From an uncultured Chloroflexia bacterium (lineage in GTDB: Bacteria; Chloroflexota; Limnocylindria; Limnocylindrales; CSP1-4), in the NCBI GenBank assembly GCA_963736895.1, contig CAVTQU010000008.1, positions 119,920 through 183,919 of the forward strand: a DNA stretch of 64,000 bases. Reading direction: 5' to 3'. The notes under the pieces are model-generated. The model did no database searches and had not been told where the DNA came from. It saw only the letters and a program-made list of their open reading frames with translations. The position numbers were made by a program, and so were the translations under genes. Below are positions 19,590-53,485 of the stretch, piece by piece. Each line of letters begins with the position of its first letter. The stretch's first letter is position 1.

Positions 19590-20288
19590 TCACGATTGCC
19601 AGTACGGGCCGGTGAGGCCGAGAGACGCGAAGTGAGCACGCAATTGGTCAATGCCCGGACGCTCGTAGTCGATCGAGAGCTTCCGTTCGTACAGCGGCGT
19701 GCCCAACACGTGTACCTCGTCGGGCGTGAGCGAGGCCGCCGAATCAGGCGGAGCGTTCGCGGTCAGATCGGATGCGTCTCGATGTTCGGGTGAGGCAAAA
19801 AAGACCATCGTGTTGGAGCAGGTCGTGATGATGTCCTCCCACCATTGCGTCGGCTTGAGCGCAAGGTAGACGATCGTCTGCTCCGGCTCGATCTAGCGTG
19901 GCGCGGCCGTCGTTCATCTCGATGTGAATTGGCTGGCGCGCAGTGATGGCAGAACGAGTCGATCGCGATGGGCACGTCGAGCATCGAATGGAACGCAACG
20001 GCGTCCCAGGCACAGTTGGCGAAGTAGTCGCGTCCGTTGGCAGTGACTCGAAACGGCGTGGCGATCGCAGAGAACGGGAACGCCATCAGGATCCGCGCCG
20101 TGCCTTCGACGAGGGCGATGTGGCGCGCATCGGCGAGCTCTCGGAGCACGCCCGTCGTCTCAGCACGGCTCAGTCCGAACTCGACCATCAGTTCCTCAAC
20201 GACGGACGGGCTGCCCGTTTCGACGAGCTGCTCGAAGATGTGGAGGCGGACGCGCTGGCTGAGTGTCGGCTCGTTCACGGCCGGAGCG
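19590..20288 (-). pseudogene. MerB-like (organomercurial lyase family) protein, apparently frameshifted
   Basis: Core ...GRDYFANCAWDAVAFHSMLDVPIAIDSFCHHC resembles MerB (Cys/Asp catalytic dyad region: CAxD). The C-terminal continuation is split across frames (19744..20013, then 19590..19808 starting VFFASPEHRD, like MerB HFFAS). One break sits at an A6/T6 run at about 19797. Likely start is GTG at about 20288. Family assignment rests on memory of MerB. Confidence 0.45.
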
Positions 20289-20306
20289 TAGCGGTATGGT
20301 CGGGTA

Positions 20307-21032: not shown

Positions 21033-21068
21033 CGCACGCGTCGTTCGCCACCTGTTGCCTATCCTCTA

Positions 21069-22075
21069 GCCCTGAACACCGAACGAACCCGGCTGATCAT
21101 CGATGTCGATACGGGCATCGATGATTCGCTCGCCCTGCTCTACGCCTGCGCCTCCCCCGAGGCCGAGATCCTGGCAGTGACGTGCTGCTCCGGCAACGTC
21201 GTCGCTCAGCAGGTCGCGGTGAACACCCGTGCGGTGCTCGAGCTGGCCGGTCGACCGGACATCGAGGTTGCGCTGGGGCGCGAAGTGCCCCTCGTCAGGC
21301 CGCTGATGACCGCACCGGAGACGCACGGACCACGGGGCATCGGCTATGCCGAACTGCCCGAACCGTCGCAGGGTTTGAGCGAGCGCCACGCCGCGGACCT
21401 GATGATCGCTGAGGCCCGCGGCCGGCCGGGCGAGGTGACGCTGATCACGGTCGGGCCACTGACCAACCTCGCAGTCGCGCTCGTGCGCGAGCCGGAACTG
21501 CCGCGACTGCTCAAGGGACTGGTGATGATGGCCGGGGCCTATCGATCACCAGGCAACACGGCACCAACCAGCGAGTGGAACGTTGCTGTGGACCCAGAGG
21601 CGATGGCGATCGTGCTCGCCGGCTGGGAGGCTCACCCCGACGTACCGCGGCCGGTTGCGCTTGGGCCTGGACGTGACCGAGCGCGCGAAGATGACGCCCG
21701 ATCATCTCGCCGAGCTCCACCACCGCGCCGGCGACCGCGAAGAATCGGCGGTCCTGCGGTTCATCGACGACGCGCTGCGCTTCTACATGGAGTTCCACAG
21801 CCGCTACGACGGTTTTTATGGCGCTTTCATTCACGACGCCCTGGCCGTGGCCTCGGCGCTCGATCCGACCTTGCTCAGGACCGAATTGCTGGCCGTTCAG
21901 GTGGAGCTGGGCGGCATGTTTACGAGCGGCGAGACCGTCACCGACTGGCGCCGCGTTTGGGGTCGCGAGCCAAATCTGGACGTCGCGGTCGCAGGCGGAC
22001 GTGGACGCATTCTTCGAGCGTTTCATCGATCGTGTCGGAAAGCTCGCCGCGCAGCGTTCGGACGTGTCAATCTGA
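21069..22075 (+). pseudogene. Inosine-uridine-preferring nucleoside hydrolase (IUNH family), two apparent frameshifts and an unresolved start
   Basis: RLIIDVDTGIDDSLALLYA (the DxDxxxDD Ca-binding motif) lies in frame from 21069 with no canonical start after the in-frame stop at 21030. The middle part is in ORF 21583..22092 (FIHDALAVASALDP) and the C-terminus in ORF 21818..22075 (DVDAFFERFIDRV). Confidence 0.7.
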
Positions 22076-22105: not shown

Positions 22106-23005
22106 ATGGGCTGGATCTCGGGACAGTTCACGACGCGGGTCATCGTGCTTATGCCGGTGGCGATCGCGATCAACATCGTCCTCGGCTACACCATCCAGAC
22201 GGTGCTCAAGGTGCCGATCTACATGGATTCGATCGGCACGATCTTCGTTGGCGTCCTCGCCGGACCGCTCGCCGGTGCCCTGACGGGCATCCTGACCAAC
22301 CTGATCTGGCAGTACGCGCCGGTCATCGGCGGCGGAACGATCGGCCCGTTCGCCATTACCGCCGGCGTGATTGGCTTGCTGGCAGGGCTCTGGGGTTACC
22401 TGGGCGTGTATCGACCTCGCCCCGCCACGGGCACGCAGCTGTTCGTGGGTGCGCTAGTCGCCGCGGCCATCGTGGTCCTGGTCGCAATCCCTATCTTCAA
22501 CAACCCCGCCTACACGGATCCGAACATCGGCAACTATCCAGACTGGGTGTTTACCGCCGCCATCGTGATCGCATTGGTCGCAGCAATCGGCGTAGCAGCC
22601 TTTATCTACATCAAGCGCGACATGGCTGGTCTGTGGGTGGCCATTTCCGGAGTTGTGACCGGCATCGTCGCAGCGTTCGTTTCCGCCCCAATCGCGGCAA
22701 TCGTCTTCGGGGGTGTGACCGGGTCGGGTACCGACCTGCTCGTGGCGGCATTACGTCAAGGCGGCTCGGACGTGTTCGCGGCATCGCTCGGGCAGGGCCT
22801 GTTCAGCGACCCGATCGACAAGCTGATCACCAGCTTCATCGTGTACATCATCCTGTCGAGCCTGTCGGTCCGCGTCCTTGCCCGCTACCCGCTGGGTGAT
22901 CGACTCACTCGTCCCGTGACTTCCGACAAGTCGCCGGAGACGCCGCAGACGCCGACACCCCCGGCTCCGCCGGCACCCGATTCACCCGCGGTATCCGACA
23001 CGTAG
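22106..23005 (+). CDS. ECF-transporter substrate-specific (S) component-like membrane protein, specificity unknown
   Basis: About 6 TM helices, Gly/Ala-rich. Sits immediately upstream of ecfT and two ecfA genes. Pro/Thr-rich C-terminal tail. Confidence 0.55.
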   Translation: MGWISGQFTTRVIVLMPVAIAINIVLGYTIQTVLKVPIYMDSIGTIFVGVLAGPLAGALTGILTNLIWQYAPVIGGGTIGPFAITAGVIGLLAGLWGYLGVYRPRPATGTQLFVGALVAAAIVVLVAIPIFNNPAYTDPNIGNYPDWVFTAAIVIALVAAIGVAAFIYIKRDMAGLWVAISGVVTGIVAAFVSAPIAAIVFGGVTGSGTDLLVAALRQGGSDVFAASLGQGLFSDPIDKLITSFIVYIILSSLSVRVLARYPLGDRLTRPVTSDKSPETPQTPTPPAPPAPDSPAVSDT

Positions 23006-23112
23006 GCACGACCTCAGGGCTGACCCAGCAGCCAGGGCTCCCCGATTTCGTAGCCCAGCCGCAGCACGGGCTCTACCGCAGCCTCAACCCGACCACCAAG
23101 CTGGTCATCGCG

Positions 23113-23820
23113 TTGACCAGCGCGATCATCGCTCTCAGCGTTCGGGGCTGGACCGCGCCGCTGATCGTGTTGGTCGTTTCGTTCGCACTAATCGTCGCGG
23201 TGGGCGTGGTGCGGCAATACATCCCGTACCTGCTCGCGACCTCGTTGTTGCTCATCTCGATCCTGCTCATCAACACGTTCCTCTATCCGGGGGCCACCGA
23301 CACGATCTTCGTGCTGGGTCCCTTTACGGCCACGGGAACGGGCCTGATCGCGGCTTCGCAGGCGGCGCTGCGCGTGCTCGCCTTTGCCACGTCCGTCGCC
23401 CTGTTCGCGTTGACAACTCGAACTGACGAGTTGGTCGACGACCTCGAACGACGCGGACTCGGACGTCGAGGTGCCTTCATCCTCACGACCGCTATCGGGA
23501 CCGTGCCTCAGATGACCCAACGTGCCCGTGAGATCGTGGATTCGCAGCGTTCGAGAGGCCTCGATACGCAGGGCGGCATCCTCGCGAGGATCAGAGGTCT
23601 CTTGCCGTTGGCCGGGCCGCTCGTCCTCAGTGCCTTCACGGAAGTGGAGCACCGAACCATGGCCCTGGAGGCACGCGCGTTCGCGGCACCGGGGCGGCGC
23701 ACAGTGCTGCGCGCCTACCGGGACACCGCACTGCAACGGACTCTGCGATGGGTGCTCGTGCTCGGAACGATCGCGCTGGTTGTGGCGGAGGTGGGTGGCC
23801 TTCTTGGGTGGATCCCGTGA
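23113..23820 (+). CDS. ecfT: Energy-coupling-factor transporter transmembrane component EcfT (CbiQ family)
   Basis: 235 aa, polytopic, conserved Arg-rich coupling-helix region (ERRGLGRRGAF...). Its stop overlaps the GTG start of the next gene (GTGA). Confidence 0.75.
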   Translation: MTSAIIALSVRGWTAPLIVLVVSFALIVAVGVVRQYIPYLLATSLLLISILLINTFLYPGATDTIFVLGPFTATGTGLIAASQAALRVLAFATSVALFALTTRTDELVDDLERRGLGRRGAFILTTAIGTVPQMTQRAREIVDSQRSRGLDTQGGILARIRGLLPLAGPLVLSAFTEVEHRTMALEARAFAAPGRRTVLRAYRDTALQRTLRWVLVLGTIALVVAEVGGLLGWIP

Positions 23821-24626
23821 GCTTGAACCTCGACAAGGTCGACTATCGCTACGCCGGTGCTACCGAAGCGACGCTGCACGGAATTGATTTAACGCTCGAG
23901 CCGGGGCGGGTCATCGGAGTGGTAGGCGCGAATGGCGCCGGCAAATCGACGATGTGCCTGTGCGCGGTTGGGCTTGCCCCCAACGTGATCGGCGGGGAGC
24001 TCAAGGGCAAGGTGGCGATAGATGACCTCGACACCTCCGGCAGCCCGATGCACAAGCTTGCCCAGCGCGCGGGCATCCTCTTCCAGGAATCGCAGACCCA
24101 GATAACCAGCGGCACGCCGACCGTTTGGGAAGAGGTCGCGTTCGGGCCGCGCAACCTGTCGCTGAGCCTGGACGAGGTCGTGGAGCGCACGTGGTCCGCG
24201 ATCCACGCCATGAGGCTGGAGGGCATCGTCGATCGGGATCCAAGCCGTCTTTCGGGCGGGCAGGCGCAGCTCGTCGCCCTGGCGGCGGTCCTGGCGCTCG
24301 GCCCGCGGTATCTCGTCCTTGACGAACCGACATCTCAGCTGGACCCGCTGGGCACCCGCCTGGTCGGCGAAACGCTGGCGCATACGGCACGCGAGACGAA
24401 CGTCGGCATCCTGATTGCCGAACACAAGACCGATCTCCTCGCCGAGCTCTGCGACGAGATTGTCGTCATCGACAAGGGACAGCTCGTGGCGCGCGGGACA
24501 GTTGAAGACGTTCTGCGTCACCCCAGCCTGGGTAAATGGGGCGTCGCCGCACCTGCCGACGTTCGATTGGAGCGCGCCGTCAGCGACGCGGGTCTGGCTT
24601 GGCAGGGCGAATGGGCGCAGGAGTGA
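23817..24626 (+). CDS. ecfA: ECF transporter ATPase subunit (ABC ATPase) EcfA
   Basis: Walker A GANGAGKST, ABC signature LSGGQ, Walker B LVLDEPTS. Likely start is GTG at 23817. Confidence 0.85.
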   Translation: MSLNLDKVDYRYAGATEATLHGIDLTLEPGRVIGVVGANGAGKSTMCLCAVGLAPNVIGGELKGKVAIDDLDTSGSPMHKLAQRAGILFQESQTQITSGTPTVWEEVAFGPRNLSLSLDEVVERTWSAIHAMRLEGIVDRDPSRLSGGQAQLVALAAVLALGPRYLVLDEPTSQLDPLGTRLVGETLAHTARETNVGILIAEHKTDLLAELCDEIVVIDKGQLVARGTVEDVLRHPSLGKWGVAAPADVRLERAVSDAGLAWQGEWAQE

Positions 24627-25459
24627 CTGCGGCATCGGGCATCGCGCTGGCGACGCGAGGCATCGGCTTCGTCTACCCGGACGGCACGCGGGCGCTTTCC
24701 AACGTGAGCTTGGACATCCAGGCGGGATCGCGCGTCGCAATCGTTGGCCAGAACGGTTCGGGCAAGTCGACTCTGATCAGACACTTCAACGGCCTGCTGC
24801 GCGCCACGGAGGGTGAGGTGCAGATTGCCGGCGAGCAGGTCGGAGATCGTCACGTCGCCGAGCTGGCCCGGCTGGTGGGAATCTCCTTCCAGAACCCGGA
24901 TCGGCAGATCTTCTCGTCGAGGGTCAAGTCGGAGGTCGCATTTGGACCGCGCAACATCGGGTTGCGTGGCGACGAGCTCCAACGTCGGCTATCGGGTTCC
25001 CTGACCCAGGTCGGGCTTGCAGATCAGGCCGATACAAACCCCTACGACCTCGGCTTCTCCGAGCGCAAGCTCCTGGCCTTGGCCTCGGTCGTCGCCATGG
25101 ATACGCCGGCAATCGTGCTGGATGAGCCGACGACGGGTCAGGACGCGAACGGCGTCCAGAAAGTCATGGAGATCGTCGCGGACCTGGCGAAGGACGGCCG
25201 AACCGTGGTCGCTGTCAGTCACGACATGACCTTTGTCGCAGAGGCGTTCGAACGCGTCCTCGTCCTGCGCGAGGGCCGATTGGTGCTAGATGGCGCGGTG
25301 GACGACGTGTTTGCCGAAGCGAATTGGCCAGTCCTCGAGTCGACCTTCCTGGAGCCGCCGTTCCCGGCAAGGCTCGGCGCGCGACTCGGCTTCGGGTCGA
25401 CGCCGACCAACGCAGCGTTCGTCGAAGCTCTCGTTGCGCGATCCAGGGACGTGCAATAG
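24611..25459 (+). CDS. ecfA: ECF transporter ATPase subunit EcfA' (second ABC ATPase)
   Basis: Walker A GQNGSGKST, Walker B IVLDEPTTG; the signature position reads FSERKLL (a degenerate LSGGQ). ATG at 24611 overlaps the previous gene by 16 nt. Confidence 0.85.
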   Translation: MGAGVTAASGIALATRGIGFVYPDGTRALSNVSLDIQAGSRVAIVGQNGSGKSTLIRHFNGLLRATEGEVQIAGEQVGDRHVAELARLVGISFQNPDRQIFSSRVKSEVAFGPRNIGLRGDELQRRLSGSLTQVGLADQADTNPYDLGFSERKLLALASVVAMDTPAIVLDEPTTGQDANGVQKVMEIVADLAKDGRTVVAVSHDMTFVAEAFERVLVLREGRLVLDGAVDDVFAEANWPVLESTFLEPPFPARLGARLGFGSTPTNAAFVEALVARSRDVQ

Positions 25460-25663: not shown

Positions 25664-26215
25664 ATGGCCGACGCTATTCCCGCCTCTTCCGCCCGACTCA
25701 GACCAAGAACCGCCGACCCATATCGCGACCTTGGCGTCATCGACAGCCGAGCGCCACGCTTCAACCAGGTCGTGGTCGGCACTGTCTCACTGCTGGCCGT
25801 CATCACCGGTTGGTGGCCGCTGCTCACGCTCCTCGCGCTTCAGTTGGGTATCGGCCTGCGCTTCGGCCGCCAGTTCTGTCTTCCGTGCGTGGCCTATTTC
25901 GAGCTGATCCAGCCGCGCTTCGGCCAGGGCGATCTCGAGGACAGCCGTCCACCAAGGTTCGCCAACAAGGTTGGCTTCGTCTTCCTGGGCGCAGCCACTG
26001 TTGCCTACGTGCTCGGGTTCGGGCTGGTCGGCGCCGCATTGGGGCTCATCGTTGCGTCGCTCGCGCTGCTCGCCGCGGTCACCGGTTTCTGCACCGGTTG
26101 CTGGATGTACAAGACCGCGGCCCCGTTCCTGGGTATCCACGTCCGGCACATCGATGCGTCTGCGATCTGCACCGAGTGCGCGATCGACGCTCGCGACCCT
26201 GAGGCCGGCTGCTGA
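25664..26215 (+). CDS. DUF4395-like small membrane protein with Cys pairs
   Basis: RFNQVVVG start region, 4 TM helices, CxxC-like pairs (CLPC, CTGC, CTEC). Family call from memory only. Confidence 0.4.
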   Translation: MADAIPASSARLRPRTADPYRDLGVIDSRAPRFNQVVVGTVSLLAVITGWWPLLTLLALQLGIGLRFGRQFCLPCVAYFELIQPRFGQGDLEDSRPPRFANKVGFVFLGAATVAYVLGFGLVGAALGLIVASLALLAAVTGFCTGCWMYKTAAPFLGIHVRHIDASAICTECAIDARDPEAGC

Positions 26216-26250: not shown

Positions 26251-26766
26251 ATGCGCATCGCGGTCGTCGTAAGCCTCTGGCTGTTCGTCGCCTGTGGCGG
26301 ACCAACTCCCGCGCCGAGCGTCGGTCCCGTTGTCTCGACCTTCGAAGACGCCACAATGTCCTTCGAATACCCCAGCAACTGGAACGCCCTGGTTCCCGAA
26401 TCCGGGGATCCGGCCCTGGTCGTCCTTTCGACCGAACCACTGGCCACGACTGAGCCCCGCATCGCGAAGCTACAGAGGGACGGCGTTTACCTGGCTTGGA
26501 CGACGCTGACCACGGCGCCTGCAACAACCCCCGATCCCAGCTTCAGCTCCGAAGTGACCGTTGGCGGCCGGCCGGCAACGGCGTCTCAGCAGCTTGCGCA
26601 GGGCGATTGCGCAGCGCTCGACGGAACCGAGCTGCTGACGGTAGTCGTCGAGTCACCCGGCTCAGCGCAGGACGTCCAAATGCAGGCGTGTGTCCAGGGA
26701 CCAAACGTGGAGCTCACGGGCGCCACAATCGCCGGCATGCTGGCCAGCGTCCACTGGAAGAACTAG
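26251..26766 (+). CDS. Lipoprotein, unknown function
   Basis: Signal peptide plus lipobox LFVACGG; 171 aa. Confidence 0.5.
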   Translation: MRIAVVVSLWLFVACGGPTPAPSVGPVVSTFEDATMSFEYPSNWNALVPESGDPALVVLSTEPLATTEPRIAKLQRDGVYLAWTTLTTAPATTPDPSFSSEVTVGGRPATASQQLAQGDCAALDGTELLTVVVESPGSAQDVQMQACVQGPNVELTGATIAGMLASVHWKN

Positions 26767-27317
26767 GTCGCAGCCTCGTCAATTCCGACTTCGGTGACGG
26801 CCAGCTGGACCTCTGTGACCTGGCCGTCGCGGATGGACCACGCCCGAACAGTGGGCATCTCTTCCATGAGCGAGCAGACGAGGTAGAGGCTCTCCGGGAA
26901 GAAGGCGAGCCCAATGTCCGTCACCGACGGTACAGCGGGTGAGGCCACGTGCGAATGGACGATCCCCCATGGCACTTCCCCGGCGTCTTCGAGCTCCAGC
27001 CAGACCTTGAGCTGTTCCTGTGGGTCGATCACGTAGCGATACGGCGACTCTGCCGCGTTCCGAAGTGGGACGTAGCGCGTTGGAGCGCCGCCATCGCCCG
27101 CGTAGGTGGGGCCGACGAGCAGCCCGCATGCCTCGTTGGGCAGGCCCTGGCGTGCGGCATCGATGATCGATTGCACCAGCTCAGCCGAGACTGACGCGTT
27201 CGTCGCCTCGAGGCTCGGCGCAGCGTCTGACGCGGCGTCGCGGGCGGCCGTGCCGGTCTGAGCAGCCTCCGCCCACTCATCGGACGTGGGAAGGCCTTTC
27301 GACTCTTCCTTCACCAC
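26763..27317 (-). CDS. mec: JAMM/MPN+ metalloprotease of the Mec+ type (CysO carboxy-terminal peptidase)
   Basis: JAMM motif EACGLL...HSHVASPAVPSVTD (ExnHxHx7Sx2D). GTG start overlaps the cysM stop (GTGA). Sits downstream of cysO and cysM, as in the Mycobacterium tuberculosis CysO pathway. Confidence 0.75.
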   Translation of the reverse strand: MVKEESKGLPTSDEWAEAAQTGTAARDAASDAAPSLEATNASVSAELVQSIIDAARQGLPNEACGLLVGPTYAGDGGAPTRYVPLRNAAESPYRYVIDPQEQLKVWLELEDAGEVPWGIVHSHVASPAVPSVTDIGLAFFPESLYLVCSLMEEMPTVRAWSIRDGQVTEVQLAVTEVGIDEAAT

Positions 27318-28198
27318 AGGTTGAGCGCCTCCAGCTCGTCGTCGGATGGATCTCTCCGCCAGAGATCCTCGGATAGGTATTTCCACCCACCGTCCGCCAA
27401 AAGGGCAACAAGAGTTCCACTCTCCATCGTTTCAGCTATGCGCGAAGCGATGGCCATCACGCCACCCGACGACACGCCGGCAAAGATTCCTTCGGTCGCG
27501 GTCAGGCGTCGCATCGCCTCGATCGACTCCTCGGTCGATACGAGGAAACGGCCATCGAGTGCGGACTCATCAAGAATCTCGGGCACGAACCCCTCCTCCA
27601 GCGAGCGCAGGCCTTGTACCTGTTCTCCGGGAATGGGCTCGGCCGCGTAGACGCGCACATTGGGGTTGTGCTCGCGCAGGCGGCGGCCAACGCCCATGAG
27701 CGTGCCGCCCGTCCCCAGACCAGCCACGAACACGTCTACCTGACCGGCGTCAGCGAGGATCTCCACACCCGTCGCTTCGTAGTGGGCGCGCGGATTGTCT
27801 TGGTTGGCGTACTGGTCGGGCATAACGTAGCGCGGATCGTCGGCCGCCATGCTTCGCGCCAACGCAACCGCGCCGTTGGAACCCAACGCCCCGGGTGAGT
27901 CGATGATGGAAGCGCCGTACATCTCCAGCAGCTGGCGCCGTTCGCGGGTGACGTTGTCGGGCATCACGACGGTCAGCCGATATCCGCGGACCTGGCAGAT
28001 CATTGCCAGCGAGATGCCCGTGTTGCCTGACGATGGCTCCAGGATCACCGAGTCCTCGCGCAGGCGCCCGTCTCGCTCGAGCCCTTGGACCAGCGAACGA
28101 GCCACGCGGTCCTTGACCGAGCCGGTCGGGTTGAAGCCCTCCAGTTTGACCAGCATCGCCACGCGCGGATTTGGATTGAAGCGCGCGACTTCCACCAT
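27311..28198 (-). CDS. cysM: Cysteine synthase (CysM-type, PLP-dependent; likely accepts thiocarboxylated CysO)
   Basis: KLEGFNPTGSVKDR PLP-lysine motif, about 295 aa. Operon context with cysO and mec. Confidence 0.9.
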   Translation of the reverse strand: MVEVARFNPNPRVAMLVKLEGFNPTGSVKDRVARSLVQGLERDGRLREDSVILEPSSGNTGISLAMICQVRGYRLTVVMPDNVTRERRQLLEMYGASIIDSPGALGSNGAVALARSMAADDPRYVMPDQYANQDNPRAHYEATGVEILADAGQVDVFVAGLGTGGTLMGVGRRLREHNPNVRVYAAEPIPGEQVQGLRSLEEGFVPEILDESALDGRFLVSTEESIEAMRRLTATEGIFAGVSSGGVMAIASRIAETMESGTLVALLADGGWKYLSEDLWRRDPSDDELEALNLW

Positions 28199-28251
28199 GG
28201 GCGTGTGCCCGATGGCGTCAATCAGGGACGGGTACTCGCCCCGAACCTGCG

Positions 28252-28518
28252 TCAGTGACCGCCCGCCATGGCTGGCAGGATGATCACCGCGTCGTTGTCC
28301 TTGACCGGCGTGCCGAGTTCGTCCATGTAGCGCACGTCCTGGCCGTTGAGGTACACGTTGACGAAACGGTGCAACGAGCCGTCTCCGGCGAACAGCTGCT
28401 CCCCCAGACCGGGATAGCTCGCCACGAGATCGGTCAGCAGCTCGCCGACGTTCGCGCCGCTCGCATTGACTTCCTTCTGGCCGTCAACCTGGGTGCGGAG
28501 GACCGGTGGGATCCGGAC
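28252..28518 (-). CDS. cysO: MoaD/ThiS-family sulfur-carrier protein (CysO-like); C-terminus GG-His
   Basis: About 88 aa from GTG at 28518 (VRIPPVLRTQVDG...). Ends ...ILPAMAGGH*. A beta-grasp sulfur carrier with one residue after the Gly-Gly, which would need removal (JAMM protease) before adenylation. Confidence 0.7.
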   Translation of the reverse strand, partial: VRIPPVLRTQVDGQKEVNASGANVGELLTDLVASYPGLGEQLFAGDGSLHRFVNVYLNGQDVRYMDELGTPVKDNDAVIILPAMAGGH

Positions 28519-28523
28519 GCTGC

Positions 28524-29660
28524 TCAACCCGCGACCGCCAGCGTTGCGGCCGGCTCCGACGACGACGCAATCGGCATCGTGCCGTCGCCACAGGCCGGGC
28601 AGTGCGGGTCGCGACGGAGGGCCACCTCGCTGAACGTGCCGTCCAGGGCGTCCCAAATCAGGAGTCGCCCAATTAGCGGATCACCGAGCTTGAGCAGCAC
28701 CTTGATCGCCTCGGTCGCCTGGAGCAGGCCCATGACGCCCGGTACGACGCCCAGGACGCCAGCAACGGAACAGCCAGGCGCGAGCTCGGGTGGCGGCGGC
28801 GTGGGATACAGGCAGCGGTAGCACGGCCCCTGGTAGGGCACGAACACCGACAGCTGGCCTTCAAACCTGAACACCGACGCGTGGATGACTGGGATGGCCG
28901 CGCGAACGGCAGCGTCGTTGAGCGTGTACCGCGTCTCGAACGTGTCGGTGCCGTCGATCACGACGTCGTAGCCCGCGATCAGTCGATCGACGTTCTCCTC
29001 GGTCAGCATCTCCTCGTGGGCGACAACCTTGACCTCGGGGTTGAGCGCCCTGATCGAGATGGCGGCCGACTGGGTCTTCTTCATGCCGATCCGGTCTTCG
29101 GTATGGACGACCTGGCGCTGCAGGTTGGAAAGGTCGACGACATCGAAGTCGACGATGCCCAGCGTGCCGACTCCCGCCGCTGCGAGGTAGAGCAGGCCTG
29201 GTGAGCCGAGCCCCCCAGCGCCGATGAACAGCACTTTCGACTGCTGGAGCTTGGCCTGTCCTTCGGGCCCGACCTCGGGCATGACGAGGTGGCGCGCGTA
29301 GCGCGGGTTGCGTGCGACAGCCGGCGTGTCGTCAGGCAGCTCGACCGGCCGACCCTGGGCCTTCCAGACACCGATCCCGCCGGCCATGGAGGCGACGTTC
29401 TGGTAGCCGAGGCTCGCCATCTGCAGCGCGGCGCGCATCGAACGGGCGCCGGCGGCGCAATAGACGACGACCTGCTTCGACTTGTCGGGTGCGACCTGCT
29501 CGATGCGGTCCAGCACCTGGATCGGTGGTATCAGCGTCGCTCCGGCAAGGTGGCCGGCCTTCCACTCGTGTTCCTCACGCGTGTCGACGAGGACCGCGCC
29601 CTGCGCAATGAGATCAGCCGCCTCTGCCGGGGTTACCTCGCGAACGGGACCGCGCGCCAT
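28524..29660 (-). CDS. Rhodanese domain fused N-terminally to a MoeB/ThiF-type E1 adenylyltransferase (MoeZ-like sulfur-carrier activating enzyme)
   Basis: Rhodanese active-site loop VVVYCAAGARS (aa ~60-130), then ThiF nucleotide-binding VLFIGAGGLGSPGLLYLAAAGVG and zinc Cys pairs CYRC...CPAC. Start probably MARGPVREV at 29660, just after the sufU stop. Confidence 0.85.
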   Translation of the reverse strand: MARGPVREVTPAEAADLIAQGAVLVDTREEHEWKAGHLAGATLIPPIQVLDRIEQVAPDKSKQVVVYCAAGARSMRAALQMASLGYQNVASMAGGIGVWKAQGRPVELPDDTPAVARNPRYARHLVMPEVGPEGQAKLQQSKVLFIGAGGLGSPGLLYLAAAGVGTLGIVDFDVVDLSNLQRQVVHTEDRIGMKKTQSAAISIRALNPEVKVVAHEEMLTEENVDRLIAGYDVVIDGTDTFETRYTLNDAAVRAAIPVIHASVFRFEGQLSVFVPYQGPCYRCLYPTPPPPELAPGCSVAGVLGVVPGVMGLLQATEAIKVLLKLGDPLIGRLLIWDALDGTFSEVALRRDPHCPACGDGTMPIASSSEPAATLAVAG

Positions 29661-29673
29661 GGGCAGCTCTTGA

Positions 29674-30072
<399 letters not shown>

Positions 30073-30079
30073 GATTCCT

Positions 30080-31346
30080 TTAGTTGGTTACAGCGGCGGT
30101 CGGGCGCGCGAACAGCCTCTCGACTTTGTTTAGCGCCTCGGCCAGGCGGTCGATGTCATCGCGATCGGTGTAGATGTAGAAGCTGGCGCGGGCACTTGCC
30201 TCCTCGCCGAGTCGCTGGTGGAGCGGCATCGTGCAGTGGTGGCCGGCGCGGACCGCGATTGCTTCGCGGTCGAGGAGCGTGGCCACGTCATGTGGGTGGG
30301 CGTCTGCGAGATTGAAGGTGACGATGCCGGCACGGTCGCTCGCAGATAGCGGACCATGGATGCGGATGCTGGGCACTTCGCGCGGCAGCATCTCCAGCGC
30401 GTATTCGATGAGATCGTGCTCGTGGGCACGGACGTGCTCCATGCCGATGTCCGTCAGGTAGTCCAGCGCCGCGCCCAAGGCCGATGGCCGCAGCGATGTC
30501 CGGCGTGCCTGCCTCGAACTTGTAGGGCACCTCGTTGTACGTCGTGTGCCGCAGGTGTACCTCGCGGATCATCTCGCCACCGCCCATGAACGGCGGCATC
30601 TCCTCGAGGATCTCGCGGCGCGCCCAGAGCGCGCCTGAGCCTGGCGGTCCCAGCGTCTTGTGGCCGGAGAATACGAAGAAGTCGCAGTCCAGGTCCTGGA
30701 CGTTGACCGGCTGATGAGGCGCCGCCTGGGCGCCGTCGACGAGCACCAGAGCGCCAGCCGCATGCGCCTTGGCGACCATCTCCTTGACCGGATTGATCGT
30801 GCCGATGCCGTTGCTCACGGCGGTGAAGGCGACCAACTTGGGCTTCGTACGCAGCAGGGCCTCAAAGCTGTCCTGGTTGAGCCGCCCGTCCTCGTCGAAC
30901 GAGATGAACTCGAGGTCCGCGTCCTTCTCCTGGGTGAGCATCTGCCACGGAATGATGTTGGAGTGGTGCTCCATCTCGGTGGTCACAATGGTGTCGGCCT
31001 TGCCGATGTTGCGGCGTCCCCACGCGTAGGCAACGAGATTGATTGCCTCGGTCGCGTTGCGCACCATGATGATCTCGCGTGCGTCGCTGGCGCCCAGGAA
31101 CGTGGCGATCTTGGAGCGAGCGCCCTCGTAGGCGGCCGTGGCTTCCTCGCCGATCTCGTAGATCCCGCGATGGACGTTGGCGCTGTAGCGGTTCATGTAC
31201 TCGCTCATCGCCTCGGCAACGACGCGCGGCTTCAGTGCCGTTGCGGCGCTGTCGAGGTAGGCCATCTTGCGGCCGTTGAAGTCGCGGTCGTAGATCGCGA
31301 AGTCCGCGCGGGTCGCGACGGGGTCCAGCGCCGGGACGATGGCCAT
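30080..31346 (-). pseudogene. sufS: Cysteine desulfurase SufS (group II, PLP-dependent), apparent 1-bp frameshift at about 30475
   Basis: N-terminal 330 aa in frame 30288..31427 (SGHKTLGPPGSGALW PLP-Lys region). C-terminal 130 aa in frame 30080..30478 (RAGHHCTMPLHQRLG, catalytic-Cys loop). An extra G in the GGG run (CTTGGGCGCGGCG) separates them. Confidence 0.8.
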
Positions 31347-31371
31347 CAGCTGCTCGCTCCTTGTACCTGGC

Positions 31372-32289
31372 TCAGTGGGCTTCCGCTTCGGGGGGCTCGG
31401 GCGCATCGGGCTCGTCTTCGAAGGCAAGCTCCAGACCTGCCTCTTTCAGGATCGGAGCGTAGCCCTCTTCCTCGAGTCGGACCGCCAGCTCGCGTCCTCC
31501 GGACGCCACGATCTGGCCCTGCGCCAGGACGTGCACGACGTCAGGGGTTATGTAGTTGAGGATGCGCTGGTAGTGGGTGATCAGCAAGACCCCCAACTCG
31601 GGGCTGAGCTGGGCGTTCACGCCCTCGGCGACGATGCGCAGCGCGTCGATATCCAGGCCGCTGTCCGTTTCGTCGAGGATCGCGATCTCCGGCTGCAGCA
31701 CGGCCATCTGGAGCATCTCGAGGCGCTTCTTCTCGCCACCCGAGAAACCCTCGTTGACGTAGCGGGCGGCAAAGCTGTCGTCGAGCTTGAGTAGCGCCAT
31801 CTTCTCGCGGAGCAGCCGGCGGTAGTCGCCCATCGAGATGCCGCCGCGGGTCATGTCCGACGGGTCGATATCGGTGTTGACCGGCTTGTCGAGCGGGCGC
31901 ATCCGTGCGTTGAGGGCGGTGCGCAGGAAACTGGCGACGCTCAGCCCGGGGATGGCCGTCGGGTATTGGAACGCCAGGAAGATGCCGGAGCGACCGCGCT
32001 TGTCGGGGCTCAGCTTGAGCAGGTCGCGGCCCTTCCACAGGACCTCGCCGTGCGTTACCTCGTAGGCCGGGTGACCCATCAGCGCATAGGCGAGAGTCGT
32101 CTTACCTGAGCCGTTGCGACCCATGATCGCGTGGACCTCGCCCTTGCGGACGGTGAGGTTGATGCCGCGCAGGATCTCGCGTTTTCGGTCAGCGACCGGA
32201 ACCACGTGCAGGTCCTTGATGACCAGCTCACGGTCGTCGTCTGATTCGCTCGTCGTGGCGTTGGCTGGTGCGTCGATTGTCTGGGTCAT
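31372..32289 (-). CDS. sufC: Fe-S cluster assembly ATPase SufC
   Basis: GRNGSGKTTL Walker A, SGGEKKR, ILDETDSGLD; about 260-aa core with an N-terminal acidic extension. Start overlaps the Rrf2 stop (ATGA). Confidence 0.9.
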   Translation of the reverse strand: MTQTIDAPANATTSESDDDRELVIKDLHVVPVADRKREILRGINLTVRKGEVHAIMGRNGSGKTTLAYALMGHPAYEVTHGEVLWKGRDLLKLSPDKRGRSGIFLAFQYPTAIPGLSVASFLRTALNARMRPLDKPVNTDIDPSDMTRGGISMGDYRRLLREKMALLKLDDSFAARYVNEGFSGGEKKRLEMLQMAVLQPEIAILDETDSGLDIDALRIVAEGVNAQLSPELGVLLITHYQRILNYITPDVVHVLAQGQIVASGGRELAVRLEEEGYAPILKEAGLELAFEDEPDAPEPPEAEAH

Positions 32290-32783
32290 GAGTCCTTGGT
32301 GGGTGCGAGATGGGAGGTGGCCACCAGTGCCTCGATCGGCATTGGGGCTGAGTGGTAGGGGTGCTGGGCTCGGGGAGCGGCCAAGTCGGCGAGAGTGATC
32401 GAGTCGAGTGCGGTGATGATCGCGTTGCGCACGGTGGTCCAGAGGTGGTTCACGTTGCAGAAGCCCATCCGCTCGCAGATGCCGGCGTGAGCGGGATCCT
32501 CACTGGCACAGACCATGGGCGCGATCGGGCCTTCGAGGGCTCTCAGCACCTCACCCATTCGAATGTCGCTCGGCTCGCGCGTCAGCTCGTAGCCGCCATG
32601 TGCGCCGCGCGTGCTGGTGACGAGACCCGCTTCGCGAAGGCTCACGACGAGCTGCTCGAGGTAAGGGCGGGGCAGCGACTCGTGGTCCGCCATCTCGGTC
32701 AGCGAGATGGGGCCGGCGCCGGAATGCCGCGCGAGCTCGACCATCATCCGCACGCCGTACTCGCCGCGCGTGCTGAAATGCAC
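32286..32783 (-). CDS. Rrf2-family transcriptional regulator (IscR/CymR-like), first gene of the suf-cys operon
   Basis: VHFSTRGEYGVRMMVELARHSGAGPISLTEMADHESLPRPYLEQLVVSLREAGLVTSTRGAHGGY is a classic Rrf2 wHTH. Cys residues at C-x7-C-x5-C (VCASEDPAHAGICERMGFC) suggest an Fe-S ligand set. Start is GTG at 32783; the ORF-track N-terminal extension is not coding. Confidence 0.75.
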   Translation of the reverse strand: MHFSTRGEYGVRMMVELARHSGAGPISLTEMADHESLPRPYLEQLVVSLREAGLVTSTRGAHGGYELTREPSDIRMGEVLRALEGPIAPMVCASEDPAHAGICERMGFCNVNHLWTTVRNAIITALDSITLADLAAPRAQHPYHSAPMPIEALVATSHLAPTKDS

Positions 32784-32944
32784 GGCGCCGGTGCCGGGGA
32801 AGATGCTGCGCGGCCGCCTGGCCGACGCCGTAGCTGGCGCCGTTGCCGGCTCCGTCACGGACGCCGTATCAGGCTCTGAATTCCGAGTGATCACGTCAGG
32901 ATTGAGTCTAGCCGAGGCCCGATTTACCCGCAATCGCCGTCTCT

Positions 32945-33166: not shown

Positions 33167-33305
33167 GATTTCGCGCCCAAATTGGCATTGGTTTCCACCT
33201 GACGGAATCCGTGGCCATTTCGAGGGCGATCGAGGACTCTATTTAGCCGTTACGTACAAGGCTTGGAATCGGAGTCGGTTTCGCTGCGGCGCTAACCTCG
33301 GGGCA

Positions 33306-33803
33306 ATGCGGCAGACCGACGTGATCGCCCTGTTCGAATACAACTATTGGGCGAACTGGACGGTCCTCGGAGCCACCACCAAGGCGTCAGTCGAGCAATT
33401 CACCGCTCGAAAGACCGTCACGTGGCGAAATCTTCGCGGAACTCTGGTGCACACGCTGGACGTCGAGCAGAGCTGGCGCCGGCGACTTCAGGGCGAGCCG
33501 AAGTCGATCTGGGACGCCGAGCTGGCGGCCAAGAAGTTCGAGACCGTCGAACGGCTCGAAGCGTATTGGCGAACAGATGCCGCAGAAATGCTCGACTGGC
33601 TGCGGAGCCTGAGCGACGATCAGTTGGCGGCCGTCATCGACCTTGGCCCGAAGGATCGGTTCCCGCTGTGGTTCTTCCTGGTCCACATCGTGACCCACGG
33701 GACAGAGCAGCGTCGCGATGTCTCCATCCTGCTCAAGAACCTGGGCCTGGAAGCACCCGAGCTCGAATTTCTCTGGTACGCCGACTCGCTCGCAGGCAAA
33801 TGA
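33306..33803 (+). CDS. DinB/YfiT-like (DinB_2) four-helix-bundle metalloenzyme family protein
   Basis: About 165 aa; LFEYNYWANWTVL...H-rich motifs typical of the DinB_2 family. Confidence 0.65.
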   Translation: MRQTDVIALFEYNYWANWTVLGATTKASVEQFTARKTVTWRNLRGTLVHTLDVEQSWRRRLQGEPKSIWDAELAAKKFETVERLEAYWRTDAAEMLDWLRSLSDDQLAAVIDLGPKDRFPLWFFLVHIVTHGTEQRRDVSILLKNLGLEAPELEFLWYADSLAGK

Positions 33804-33823
33804 ACGCTCGCTAACCTCGCGCC

Positions 33824-34417
33824 ATGGAATTCAGCGAAGTTGTCCGGCGGCGGCGCATGGTGCGTAACTACGACCCGGAGCGGCCTGTTTCGCGAGAGGC
33901 TCTGGAGCGAATCGCCGCCGCGGCGCAGCGCGCGCCAAGCGCCGGCTTCAGCCAGGGACAGCGGCTCGTGGTCATCACGGATCCGGAGCGGCGCCGACGC
34001 GTGGCCGGACTGTGTGACGAGCCTGAATACGTTGAGGCCGGCTTCGATCCGTGGATCAGCCGGGCCCCGGCGCTGTTCGTGCCGTGCGTCAGCGAGGAGA
34101 TCTACCACGCCCGATACAACGAGCCGGACAAGCGTCCGCCCGGCGAGCCGGAGATCGATTGGCCAGTTCCGTACTGGTTCATCGACGTGGGCGCCACGGT
34201 GATGCTGATCCTGCTCGCGGCGGTCGATGAGGGCCTCGCCGCTGGCTTCCTCGGCACGCACCGCTTCCCTGAGCTGTCCGCGGAGCTGGGCCTCCCGTCC
34301 GATCAACAGCCGGTCGGCGTGATCACCGTTGGATACCCACGCCCCGACCGACGATCCGGGTCGCTGAAGCGCGGCTGGGTCAAAGCGGACGATTTCGTCC
34401 ACTGGGAGCGCTGGTGA
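33824..34417 (+). CDS. Nitroreductase-family (NAD(P)H:FMN oxidoreductase fold) protein
   Basis: RRMVRNYDPERPVSREALERI start and ~195-aa length are typical of the nitroreductase superfamily. Confidence 0.75.
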   Translation: MEFSEVVRRRRMVRNYDPERPVSREALERIAAAAQRAPSAGFSQGQRLVVITDPERRRRVAGLCDEPEYVEAGFDPWISRAPALFVPCVSEEIYHARYNEPDKRPPGEPEIDWPVPYWFIDVGATVMLILLAAVDEGLAAGFLGTHRFPELSAELGLPSDQQPVGVITVGYPRPDRRSGSLKRGWVKADDFVHWERW

Positions 34418-35340
34418 CAGACGAAACGCCCCAGCCGCCCCGACTGGGGCCGGTCGGGTTTCGGATTTCGGCCACCGGCGGCGTCGGGCTCACTTGGCAC
34501 AGGCTCGACGCAACCTGGGCCATCTGTGGCGAGCAGGAGGTTTTCTCGGCGGGCTGGCTGAGCGACCACCTGTCCGACGCGGGCCGCGAGCGCGGCGGCG
34601 CCGCGTTCGAGGCATTCACCACGGCGGCAGCGCTGGCTCATCGCGTCCCCCGCAAGTGGATCGGCCTGGCCGTGGCTGCGAACACATTTCGCCATCCGTC
34701 CGTGCTGGCGAAGCAGGCGACCATGATGGACATCGTTACGGGCGGCCGTTTCATCCTGGGTGTCGGGGCAGGCTGGCACATTGGCGAGCACGAGGCGTTC
34801 GGCATCGAATTGCCCGAGCCGCGCGAGCGGTTCGATCGCTATGAATCGTCGCTGCAGGTTCTGTCCGCACTCTTCAGCGAGGCGGCGCGCCAGCCGCCTG
34901 GCGTCACCCTGAGTGACGAAATCTACTCACTGGACCGCGCGACCAACGAGCCGCCGCCCGTCTCACCCACTGGTCCGCCACTGTGGCTCGGCGGCCAACG
35001 CCGCCGGGGAATCGAGCTGATCGCGCGCTACGCCTCGGGCTGGCCGCTGCCGGGCAACCGCGCCGGTGACGTCGACTACTTCGTCCAGATGCGCGACAGG
35101 ATCAGAAAGGAGCTTGAGTCGGCCGGCCGCGATCCGGACGCATTCACTTTTGCCGCCCAGGTCGACTGCGGAAGCTCAGCCAGCGACAGAAAGGCGGCTC
35201 TCAAGGCGGCTCGGCGCTTCCAGAAACAGGGAGCCGACCACGTCATCCTCGGAATACCGGGCTCCGCAGCACCAAACGCTGCCTTACCGATGGCCCACGA
35301 AGTGGCTGAGCCCATTCGAGAGGGCGCCCTCAGCAGCTAG
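34414..35340 (+). CDS. Luciferase-like monooxygenase family oxidoreductase (F420-dependent LLM class)
   Basis: TIM-barrel LLM motifs (GRFILGVGAGW, EHEAFG). About 308 aa. Start overlaps the previous stop. Confidence 0.7.
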   Translation: MTDETPQPPRLGPVGFRISATGGVGLTWHRLDATWAICGEQEVFSAGWLSDHLSDAGRERGGAAFEAFTTAAALAHRVPRKWIGLAVAANTFRHPSVLAKQATMMDIVTGGRFILGVGAGWHIGEHEAFGIELPEPRERFDRYESSLQVLSALFSEAARQPPGVTLSDEIYSLDRATNEPPPVSPTGPPLWLGGQRRRGIELIARYASGWPLPGNRAGDVDYFVQMRDRIRKELESAGRDPDAFTFAAQVDCGSSASDRKAALKAARRFQKQGADHVILGIPGSAAPNAALPMAHEVAEPIREGALSS

Positions 35341-35757: not shown

Positions 35758-36355
35758 CTTCGCGCATCCTCGCCGGTGTGGCGGCGGCCTGCTCGGCCTG
35801 TTCGGCAGCACGCGCCAGAACCCACAACAGATCGGCCAGTCGATTCACGTATGGCCCGACCCACGGACTGCCCAGCTCGACAGCCCGATCCAGGGCGACG
35901 ATCCGCCGCTCGGCGCGTCGGAGAACGGTCCGCGCCACCTCGAGCTCCGCGGACGCCCATGTCTCGCCCGGCACGATGAACTCGCGAGGCATCTCGACGG
36001 TTGCCTCCCATCGGGCGAGATCGGCTTCGACTCCATTCAGCATCTCTTCGGAAACACGCGTGACACCATCCTGAAGTCGATCGACAGCCGTTGGATTTGT
36101 CGCCAGCTCCGCACCCACAACGAACAGCTCGCGCTGGTAACGCAGCACGATCTCCGATAGTTCCGTCAAGGCGGCCTGTGTCAACGCGACCCTGGCAACG
36201 CCGAGTACCGCAACGGCTTCGTCAACCGCTCCGTAAGCGTCGGTCCGAGGGTCGTCCTTGCCGATTCGGCCGCCATACAGAAGGCCGGTCGTCCCATCGT
36301 CGCCTTTACCTGTGGCGACTGCGCTATTCGCTATCGAAGGTCGGCGAGCTACCAC
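35753..36355 (-). CDS. ATP:cob(I)alamin adenosyltransferase, PduO/MMAB type
   Basis: TGKGDDGTTGLLYGGRIGKDD N-terminal signature. Confidence 0.85.
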   Translation of the reverse strand: MVARRPSIANSAVATGKGDDGTTGLLYGGRIGKDDPRTDAYGAVDEAVAVLGVARVALTQAALTELSEIVLRYQRELFVVGAELATNPTAVDRLQDGVTRVSEEMLNGVEADLARWEATVEMPREFIVPGETWASAELEVARTVLRRAERRIVALDRAVELGSPWVGPYVNRLADLLWVLARAAEQAEQAAATPARMREA

Positions 36356-36723
36356 ACCAGGCCGGCGTCGCGCGGGTCCCAGCGCTCTGCCAAAAGGGTG
36401 ACTTTGACCTCGTTCTCGACGACGCTCTCGACCTGCTCCTTCACCTGCTGGATCATCGATCCGGCGTAGGGGCAGAACGGCGTCGTCAGGATCATCTTGA
36501 CCTCGGTCTGCTCCGGGCTCTGGATGATCTGCTTGATGAGCGCCAGCTCGACGACATTCATGCCGATCTCGGGGTCGACCACGGCGCGCAGCGCGTCAAG
36601 GATCGCCAGCTCGGTCGCACGCGCCTGCGGGTCGATCGTGACCGCGGGTGCAGCAGTCGTCGCGGGCGCGGACGGCGCTGGATCGGTGGTCGTTGGTGTC
36701 TCGGTCGAAATCTGATCAGCCAT
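36349..36723 (-). CDS. DUF59/MIP18-family Fe-S cluster assembly factor (SufT-like)
   Basis: VVDPEIGMNVVELALI...LTTPFCPYAG motif; PT-rich N-terminus. Confidence 0.7.
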   Translation of the reverse strand: MADQISTETPTTTDPAPSAPATTAAPAVTIDPQARATELAILDALRAVVDPEIGMNVVELALIKQIIQSPEQTEVKMILTTPFCPYAGSMIQQVKEQVESVVENEVKVTLLAERWDPRDAGLVW

Positions 36724-38123: not shown

Positions 38124-38447
38124 GTGCCCAAGCTTCTGATCGCCGTCGTCCACGCCCAGGATGCGAGCCAGCTCGTTGAGGCGCTGCGCGGCGCCGAGCT
38201 GCGCGTGACCGAGGTCCTGTCACGCGGCGGCTTTCTGCAGGCACGCAACGCGATGCTGTACATCGGCGTCGAGGACGAGCAGGTCCCGGTCGCGATGGCG
38301 CTGATCGAGGAGAACTGCCGGTCACGCACCGAGGAAGTACCGGCGGAGCCGCTCGGTGGCATCGATGCGAACTGGCTGCCCACCGAGGTGACGCATGGTG
38401 GCGCCACGGTCTTCGTTGTTCCGCTGGACGAGATCCGCCGGATATAA
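38124..38447 (+). CDS. darA: PII-like c-di-AMP receptor protein DarA/PstA family
   Basis: 107 aa; strongly similar by eye to PstA/DarA (LIAVV..QDA..L...L......T.....GGFL...N..L.IGV....V.....I...C......GGATVFV.P.D). Confidence 0.7.
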   Translation: MPKLLIAVVHAQDASQLVEALRGAELRVTEVLSRGGFLQARNAMLYIGVEDEQVPVAMALIEENCRSRTEEVPAEPLGGIDANWLPTEVTHGGATVFVVPLDEIRRI

Positions 38448-53408: not shown

Positions 53409-53485
53409 TGGCGGACCCGACCGGATTCGAACCGGCGATCTCCAGCGTGACAGGCTGGCATGTTGGGCCGCTACACCACGGGTCC
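53409..53485 (-). tRNA. tRNA-Asp (anticodon GTC), CCA encoded
   Basis: Reverse complement: GGACCCGTGGTGTAGCGGCCCAACATGCCAGCCTGTCACGCTGGAGATCGCCGGTTCGAATCCGGTCGGGTCCGCCA. Cloverleaf with anticodon loop CTGTCAC and T-loop GGTTCGAATCC. Confidence 0.85.

Follow-up and report, generated by a model that had tools for sequence, protein, structure and literature searches.

An IscR-like Rrf2 regulator heads an operon of the Limnocylindria that joins sufCSU to the genes of a CysO-type cysteine pathway

This study concerns eight co-directional genes on the minus strand (32783..26763) of a 64-kb stretch of DNA from an uncultured soil Chloroflexota bacterium of the class Limnocylindria; the entire stretch is referred to as the window. 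In the order of transcription, the genes encode an Rrf2 regulator, the iron-sulfur (Fe-S) assembly proteins SufC, SufS, and SufU, an adenylyltransferase (E1) with a rhodanese and a ThiF domain, the sulfur carrier CysO, the synthase CysM, and the JAMM metalloprotease Mec (Table 1). A preliminary description of the locus had named the same genes in the same order, and domain assignment with Pfam places every product in the family given there (in gene order, Rrf2 at 1.6e-38, ABC_tran, Aminotran_5, NifU_N, Rhodanese and then ThiF, ThiS, PALP, and Prok-JAB). Finer family assignments were made with NCBIfam models against their curated cut-offs, and the closest solved relatives were taken from the PDB.

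The junctions are those of a single operon. The coding sequences overlap by ATGA at Rrf2/sufC, TTGA at E1/cysO, CTGA at cysO/cysM, and GTGA at cysM/mec, and the other junctions are gaps of 7 to 25 nucleotides (nt) with Shine-Dalgarno-like sequences: 25 nt, containing AAGGAG, between sufC and sufS, 7 nt between sufS and sufU, and 13 nt between sufU and E1 (less than 20 nt in close relatives). The ATGA and GTGA overlaps had already been recognized, but the 5-nt gap that had been placed between E1 and cysO gives way to the TTGA overlap. The codon at 28518 is GTC and thus unusable as a cysO start, and the nearest start is the TTG at 28527, which overlaps the E1 stop codon. Inside the cluster no promoter- or terminator-like site was found, with a scan that is weak for this organism and also overlooked the conserved TTGCGG-17-TAGACT promoter described below. 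Likewise, when the whole window was scanned with Rfam at gathering thresholds, the only matches were two distant tRNAs; none lay near the cluster or in the approximately 490 nt upstream of the Rrf2 gene, where a riboswitch or other such RNA had been considered.

Table 1. Genes and regulatory elements of the operon and further features in the 64-kb window
Feature	Position	Strand	Remarks
Rrf2 regulator, IscR-like	32286..32858	-	Conserved domain begins at 32783; probable GTG start at 32858
sufC, Fe-S assembly ATPase, 305 aa	31372..32289	-	TIGR01978; ATGA overlap with Rrf2
sufS, type II cysteine desulfurase	30080..31346	-	+1 frameshift at ~30474-30481
sufU, sulfur-transfer protein, short form, 132 aa	29674..30072	-	TIGR01994
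E1, N-terminal rhodanese plus ThiF/MoeB adenylyltransferase	28524..29660	-	PRK08762
cysO, ThiS/MoaD-fold sulfur carrier, 91 aa, GGH end	28252..28527	-	Pfam ThiS
cysM, O-phosphoserine sulfhydrylase-like	27311..28255	-	Probable CTG start at 28255
mec, JAMM/Prok-JAB metalloprotease	26763..27314	-	Prok-JAB 2.6e-19; GTGA overlap with cysM
-35-like hexamer TTGCGG	32928..32933	-	17 nt before TAGACT; TTGACG in more distant relatives
-10-like hexamer TAGACT	32905..32910	-	Nearly invariant in relatives; abuts the 5' side of the operator
Predicted 25-bp Rrf2 operator, AATCCTGACGTGATCACTCGGAATT	32879..32903	-	Imperfect palindrome of IscR type 1 shape; 39.8 bits
sufT-like gene, DUF59/FeS_assembly_P	36349..36723	-	PF01883 4.5e-14; 3.5 kb upstream of Rrf2
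Cyclic-di-AMP receptor gene (CdAMP_rec)	38124-38447	+	Ordinary feature, unrelated to the operon
tRNA gene	53412-53485	-	Rfam
tRNA gene	59854-59926	+	Rfam

With the E1 protein as query, species-representative genomes yielded 80 loci, which were compared by tblastn with all eight proteins over flanks of up to 10 kb (6 kb upstream for the cultured Ktedonobacterium Dictyobacter, locus L037). The best relatives are metagenome-assembled genomes (MAGs) of Candidatus Limnocylindrales/Limnocylindria (Chloroflexota), in which E1 is 80 to 89% identical. The full eight-gene order is conserved in 20 loci, nearly all of them labelled Limnocylindria or other Chloroflexota, with E1 identity down to about 58%; some 14 more are consistent with it and truncated at contig ends. 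Since 20 related loci have the identical order, the arrangement is not a product of chance. In seven loci (L023 to L027, L043, and L078) it is split by 0.6 to 6.8 kb inserted between sufS and sufU. Distant relatives have a sufU-E1 gap of 170 to 330 nt, in which no convincing small conserved open reading frame (ORF) was found. The neighborhood of suf and CysO genes is also found in another phylum, there with sufB and sufD inside the operon: in the Solirubrobacterales (Actinomycetota), Rrf2-sufC-sufD-sufS-sufU-sufB lies divergent from E1-cysO...cysM-mec (L071:2688-9074 and L075:2644-9120). The Limnocylindria-type operator was not found at these two loci.

The regulator passes only the superfamily model of NCBIfam. 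It remains below the cut-offs for IscR (TIGR02010, 96 versus 207 bits) and CymR (130 versus 195 bits), and for this reason we call it IscR-like rather than IscR. Its best PDB match is IscR of Thermincola potens (4CIC, 8e-38). Conserved across the loci are a C-x10-C-x5-C motif (CASEDPAHAGICERMGFC) and a subsequent NVNH; in the crystal sequence of 4CIC, the corresponding loop has three serines at the places of the three cysteines. The spacing is not the C-x7-C-x5-C initially reported, but the suggestion made at the same time, that the regulator senses Fe-S clusters, is supported by the match to 4CIC, by the three conserved cysteines, and by an operator like the type 1 sites of IscR. The regulator may thus bind a cluster, and its DNA binding and repression may depend on it. 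The peptide RSIFPGTGAV, encoded upstream of 32783, is conserved as well, and past the operator the first canonical start is the GTG at 32858; the ORF probably begins there rather than at 32783.

Upstream of the Rrf2 gene, the window and 24 related loci share the arrangement TTG(C/A)CG-17 nt-TAGACT, directly followed by the palindrome AATCC(T/C)GAC-N7-(C/G)TCGGAATT. In the 24 related loci the position of the hexamers is kept while spacer and flanking sequence vary. A generic sigma-70 scan did not flag the -35-like hexamer TTGCGG. The format of the palindrome in the window matches the IscR type 1 motif ATASYYGACTRWWWYAGTCRRSTAT, as quoted in PMC3899308. With a weight matrix built from the Rrf2-upstream sites, the window palindrome scores 39.8 bits, whereas 20 shuffled versions of the window reach 16 at most; the score of 39.8 is partly circular, since this site was included in the training. 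It is the sole strong site in the window; another, at position 100 (14.8 bits), was dismissed as falling inside the shuffle range. Throughout 1.44 Mb of DNA from the related loci, sites that reach 18 bits or more are confined to three positions, namely in front of Rrf2, in front of sufB, and, where the operon is split, in front of sufU. All seven loci with 600 nt or more between sufS and sufU carry a second palindrome (12.6 to 28.5 bits) no more than 200 nt upstream of sufU, whereas the corresponding region scores below zero in nine contiguous loci. At sufB, the palindrome overlaps the promoter, at a GATAAT-like -10 hexamer, in L083 (27 bits), L085 (18 bits), and L082 (17.6 bits). This pattern suggests that the palindrome is the operator through which Rrf2 acts at its own promoter and at genes for Fe-S assembly.

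The regulon may extend further. The sufT-like gene in the window is kept 2 to 4 kb upstream of Rrf2 in relatives, and a palindrome at 36732-36708, weak at 12.8 bits and within the shuffle range, lies over its start. Its overlap with the sufT start and its recurrence in relatives (L002, L010, L017, L021, and L022) lead us to retain this site as suggestive, and no more than that, of a further regulon member. In two of the split loci (L023:3789-9192 and L024:3705-9010), the insert between sufS and sufU encodes, on the opposite strand, a FAD-dependent oxidoreductase and an ABC transporter with a SBP_bac_6/8/11-type solute-binding protein, a permease, and an ATPase with a TOBE domain. The insert is divergent from sufU and, as an Rrf2-type palindrome lies in the intergenic region that they share, it may represent a co-regulated importer of iron or a sulfur compound.

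SufC is an ordinary component of a Gram-positive-type SUF system, and SufU appears to be one in a short form. SufC scores 317 bits with TIGR01978 (cut-off, 212.8), shares 54% identity with its E. coli counterpart, and has readable Walker A, signature, and Walker B motifs. SufU scores 114.8 bits with TIGR01994 (cut-off, 92.5) over residues 2 to 87, the only part that matches the model; it has the motifs CGD, GCAISxASAS, and KC, and its best PDB match is B. subtilis SufU (1XJS/5XT5), whose insertion of about 20 residues it lacks. SufS, previously listed as one gene, is in fact divided over two ORFs that match Aminotran_5 at positions 2 to 264 and 261 to 371 and are 49% and 39% identical to E. 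coli SufS. The break lies at about 30481-30474, with one extra base near 30478 relative to two metagenome contigs that are 94% identical to the window at the DNA level and have an intact sufS (L086 and L087). The window gene itself is frameshifted; the repaired protein scores 557 bits with TIGR01979 (cut-off, 475) and contains FSGHK and GHHCTMP. We believe that the break is probably an assembly error rather than a true mutation because frameshifts also occur in other regions of the window and at other sites of the same genes in related long-read MAGs (L002 in sufS; L010 in E1 and cysM). The window regions in question are 19596-20293 (a PNP_UDP_1-like gene) and 21042-22072 (a nucleoside hydrolase, truncated in its Pfam match), where homologues align in two or three frames, which indicates either an error-prone assembly or several pseudogenes.

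The downstream half of the operon encodes the parts of a CysO pathway. In the 394-residue E1 ORF, Pfam finds Rhodanese at residues 26 to 117 and ThiF at residues 137 to 372, and the translation shows the rhodanese loop CAAGARS as well as two pairs of the CxxC type. The rhodanese domain is therefore N-terminal, as had been noted, but the layout is not distinctive, since a curated family with this architecture already exists (PRK08762; 520 bits against a cut-off of 449). CysO matches Pfam ThiS at 2.4e-14, with CysO of M. tuberculosis as the best PDB match (3DWG_C, 7e-23). The best match to CysM in the PDB is the M. tuberculosis enzyme of that name (3DKI/3DWG, 8e-84), with a cysteine synthase next at 3e-69, fourteen orders of magnitude behind. 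These matches bear out the earlier assignment of carrier and partner to CysO and CysM rather than to thiamine or molybdenum cofactor (Moco) synthesis. The equivalent of Arg220 in M. tuberculosis CysM, which we take to be the phosphoserine-binding residue that marks the O-phosphoserine-specific type, is conserved (aligned segments LR(S)LEEGFVPE and LR(N)MDEGFVPE). Mec matches Prok-JAB at 2.6e-19 and has an intact JAMM motif, E...HSH-x7-S-x2-D (NEACG...HSHVASPAVPSVTD). By comparison with these relatives, the proteins of the window may form the thiocarboxylate CysO-COSH and use it to make cysteine from O-phosphoserine.

The ends of cysO and cysM deserve separate mention. CysO terminates in GGH, and it had been suggested that the residue after GG is trimmed off. 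This fits the orthologues, in which PAMAGG is followed by 0 to 15 nonconserved residues (none, R, S, H, T, GR, AR, AI, SAAGGS, SNHR, or longer variable tails), as would be expected if CysO were made as a precursor and cut back by the neighboring protease, and it is consistent with the intact JAMM motif of Mec. In L002 and L004 to L007, cysM starts with a TTG that overlaps the cysO stop codon, where the window has CTG (within CTGA); the same base change turns the last residue of CysO from Arg into His. The longest window ORF with an ATG, GTG, or TTG start begins at 28198 and lacks the conserved N terminus YPSLIDAIGHTPMV. Probably, the CTG at 28255 is the start codon of cysM in the window, and cysM of L011 likewise has no canonical start.

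The operon lacks sufB and sufD, and the absence of these genes noted in the preliminary description holds for the entire 64 kb, including the DNA upstream of the Rrf2 gene, where a conventional suf operon might have continued. No match was obtained in the window with E. coli SufB, SufD, SufE, or SufA (tblastn, E<=0.01) or with Solirubrobacterales SufB and SufD (E<=1). With the same E. coli and Solirubrobacterales queries, L022 was the only one of the Limnocylindria cluster loci to give a SufB or SufD match in the flanks covered, of up to 10 kb. L022 is a frameshift-ridden contig that carries the 3' end of sufB and shares a MAG (MFD03638.bin.2.4) with cluster locus L078. A stitched SufB fragment from L022 led to many close SufB proteins, one of them annotated as Candidatus Limnocylindria, and to a conserved sufB-sufD-Rieske locus (L082 to L085; L084 is annotated as Candidatus Limnocylindria) that has no sufC within 10 kb. 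SufC thus has no SufB/SufD partner in the window, as stated before, but it is not an orphan because the separate sufB-sufD-Rieske operon has the same palindrome. Judging from these sites, the SUF system is complete and dispersed within one predicted Rrf2 regulon.

The SufB loci show some further features. L022:600-4900 contains, besides the 3' end of sufB, a possible remnant of the sufD N terminus, a ferredoxin-like ORF, a sufT-like gene, an Rrf2 gene with an operator of 39.7 bits, E1, and a cysO-like remnant; the locus is degraded, with many frameshifts, and could represent a paralogue or a contig that was mis-binned. In some Limnocylindria genomes, an intein lies within sufB (L022:1-610; L082:7753-10675): in L022 the C-terminal splice motif ...FIANGIFAHN|S directly precedes the C-terminal extein of SufB, in L082 a stretch of about 1 kb with Intein_splicing/LAGLIDADG matches interrupts the gene, and SufB of L083 is free of inteins. 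After the Limnocylindria-like proteins, the nearest named relatives of the C-terminal SufB fragment are archaeal (Nitrosocaldus, Nitrososphaerales, Woesearchaeota, Diapherotrites, and Micrarchaeota; 65 to 74% identity), which suggests that Limnocylindria SufB is of archaeal type or was horizontally transferred.

How might these parts work together? We consider it likely that they form an autoregulated operon of the Limnocylindria that couples cysteine supply to Fe-S assembly by coordinated induction. The IscR-type regulator, presumably with an Fe-S cluster on C-x10-C-x5-C and possibly the nearby His, would bind the 25-bp palindrome just past the -10 hexamer, and repression would be lifted when Fe-S clusters become scarce or oxidized. 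SufC, SufS, SufU, and the CysO pathway would then be induced together with SufB, SufD, and the Rieske protein from the second palindrome-bearing operon, and probably with SufT. By analogy with the M. tuberculosis system, Mec would remove the residue after the Gly-Gly of CysO, E1 would adenylate the carrier, and the persulfide on the E1 rhodanese domain would convert it to the thiocarboxylate; CysM would join this to O-phosphoserine, and Mec would liberate cysteine. In this way, an oxidation-tolerant supply of cysteine would be tied to SufS, the cysteine consumer in Fe-S assembly. Co-induction of supply and assembly is the simplest logic given that CysO, CysM, and MoeZR of M. tuberculosis are upregulated mainly under oxidative-stress conditions (PMC3227635).

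Several observations weigh against this coupling as a full account. Five loci (L009, L012, L013, L031, and L050) read Rrf2-sufC-sufS-sufU-E1-mec, with no cysO or cysM within the retrieved DNA, so that cysteine supply is not the sole reason for keeping E1 and the JAMM protein beside suf. Where the operon is split, sufU goes with E1-cysO-cysM-mec and not with sufS in seven of seven loci, which hints at a more direct link of sufU to E1. The presence of sufBD and the cluster in the same genome is documented for one MAG only (L022 and L078), by way of the poor, frameshifted L022 contig. Finally, with a frameshifted sufS and a cysM without a canonical start, function in the window genome itself is not guaranteed. 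Possibly, sulfur passes directly from SufS via SufU to the E1 rhodanese and on to CysO and perhaps other ThiS/MoaD carriers, a relay compatible with co-regulation that we regard as conceivable but on balance unlikely. Besides the co-segregation of sufU, it would account for the placement of sufU directly upstream of E1 and for the intact CAAGARS active-site loop, and E1 drawing SufS/SufU sulfur for carriers in general fits the retention of E1 and mec where cysO and cysM are missing. A cysteine desulfurase is already suspected as the donor to MoeZR, and the source of the CysO sulfur is stated to be unknown (PMC3227635). As a route to cysteine, however, the relay is circular, one cysteine being spent for each one made, and the earlier reading of SufS/SufU sulfur as wired into CysO went further than an inference of this kind allows. 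In addition, shared regulation accounts for the gene adjacency equally well, the SufBCD scaffold is the established acceptor of SufU sulfur in B. subtilis, and in the Acidimicrobiia as well as in Dictyobacter E1-cysO-cysM-mec occurs without suf genes in the flanks that were covered. The stronger form of the idea, in which SufS-SufU is the dedicated physiological donor to the E1 rhodanese and one hub feeds both SufBCD and ubiquitin-like thiocarboxylate carriers, we put forward with still more reserve.

The frameshift and the missing start codon also raise the question of whether the operon is decaying in the window genome, with sufS a true pseudogene, split by its one-base insertion, and the cysM start lost by the change from TTG to CTG. 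We think this rather improbable: other window genes, at about 19.6 to 20.3 kb and 21.0 to 22.1 kb, change frame too, the frameshifts of the related long-read MAGs fall at different sites and point to assembly error, L011 shares the noncanonical cysM start, and the remaining cluster is intact, with identical SufU proteins in several soil metagenomes. It is less probable again that the carrier module resembles SAMP or TtuB and serves protein conjugation or delivers sulfur for tRNA, Moco, or another thio-metabolite, with E1 and the JAMM protein as its core and CysM as an accessory. The best NCBIfam matches are indeed archaeal (SAMP1 for the carrier at 62.5 bits against a cut-off of 60; UbaA for E1 and desampylase for the JAMM protein, both below cut-off), and E1 and mec occur without cysO and cysM in many Acidimicrobiia loci in addition to the five Limnocylindria loci. 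Nonetheless, the carrier and the PLP enzyme have their closest solved relatives in CysO and CysM of M. tuberculosis, seen as a complex in 3DWG, and the Arg that binds phosphoserine is conserved. Translation of cysO and cysM is coupled via TTGA in relatives, and 20 loci keep cysO, cysM, and mec side by side. We see hardly any room for the view that Rrf2-sufCSU and E1-cysO-cysM-mec are two independent, merely adjacent operons. The halves are found apart in other phyla and are divergently transcribed neighbors in the Solirubrobacterales, but the short sufU-E1 gap in the window and its close relatives, the absence of promoter- or terminator-like sites between the halves in our (weak) scan, and the order kept in 20 loci all speak for one unit. 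Moreover, where the operon does split, it does so between sufS and sufU, and the operator then reappears in front of the downstream unit. Coordinated induction from an autoregulated operon remains the reading that we prefer.

Further genes flank the operon on either side. Beside the end of mec, an ECF-type transporter (S component, CbiQ/EcfT, and two ATPases) and a DUF4395 membrane protein are encoded on the plus strand (22106-25459 and 25664-26215), and many related loci likewise have the ATPase pair beside mec. On the other side, facing away from the Rrf2 promoter (33270-35340, plus strand), are genes for a DinB-family protein with a weak mycothiol-S-transferase-like match, a nitroreductase, and a luciferase-like monooxygenase. 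These are possibly thiol or redox-stress genes that use the same intergenic region of about 490 nt.

Taken together, the Limnocylindria appear to have reorganized their SUF system throughout the class, with SufC, SufS, and SufU encoded apart from SufBD, yet bound to them by a common operator, and the result is a defined candidate operator and regulon for an uncultured lineage that is abundant in soil and freshwater. The arrangement also brings a cysteine desulfurase, along with its partner in sulfur transfer, next to the rhodanese-E1 of the CysO pathway, which makes for a concrete and testable hypothesis on sulfur trafficking. If SufS-SufU were the donor, this would answer where the thiocarboxylate sulfur of CysO originates, and we see the main value of the locus in this testable lead. 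The parts themselves are known, being ordinary SUF components and genes of a described class, and they include no new protein family or chemistry. New, as far as we can judge, are the fusion behind an IscR-like regulator, the relocation of sufBD to a second locus of the same regulon, the short SufU, and the definition of the regulon; a literature search found no published description of a sufCSU-E1-cysO-cysM-mec operon.

The CysO pathway of M. tuberculosis (mec Rv1334, cysO Rv1335, cysM Rv1336, and moeZR Rv3206c) draws on the same four protein families. It differs from the module in the window, in which E1 is part of the operon and has its rhodanese domain at the N terminus (PRK08762 type) rather than at the C terminus as in MoeZR, CysO has one extra residue after GG, the order is E1-cysO-cysM-mec, and the whole is joined to sufCSU behind an Rrf2 regulator. 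The four downstream genes correspond exactly to operon class 4c of Iyer, Burroughs and Aravind (2006), which combines ThiS/MoaD, an E1-rhodanese, JAB, and cysteine synthase and was described for Chloroflexus, Rubrobacter, and others (PMC1779556). No mention of a desulfurase, SufS, or NifS was found in that paper, so that the class was apparently not linked there to a cysteine desulfurase or SUF. With the Gram-positive SUF systems (sufCDSUB of B. subtilis and those of actinobacteria), the window shares SufC and, judging by the diagnostic motifs, probably a type II SufS (once its frameshift is repaired) and a SufU. Compared with the B. subtilis operon, however, it lacks sufB and sufD, which form a separate Rieske-linked locus in relatives, and its SufU lacks the insertion of about 20 residues. 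The Solirubrobacterales loci L071 and L075, with a full set of suf genes divergent to E1-cysO, represent an intermediate arrangement. As to the regulator, the window protein shares with IscR of E. coli and T. potens (4CIC) the family, three loop cysteines with a nearby histidine, the position as first gene, and an operator of type 1 format. It departs from E. coli IscR in its cysteine spacing (x10/x5 instead of x5/x5) and in preceding a cysteine-synthesis module.

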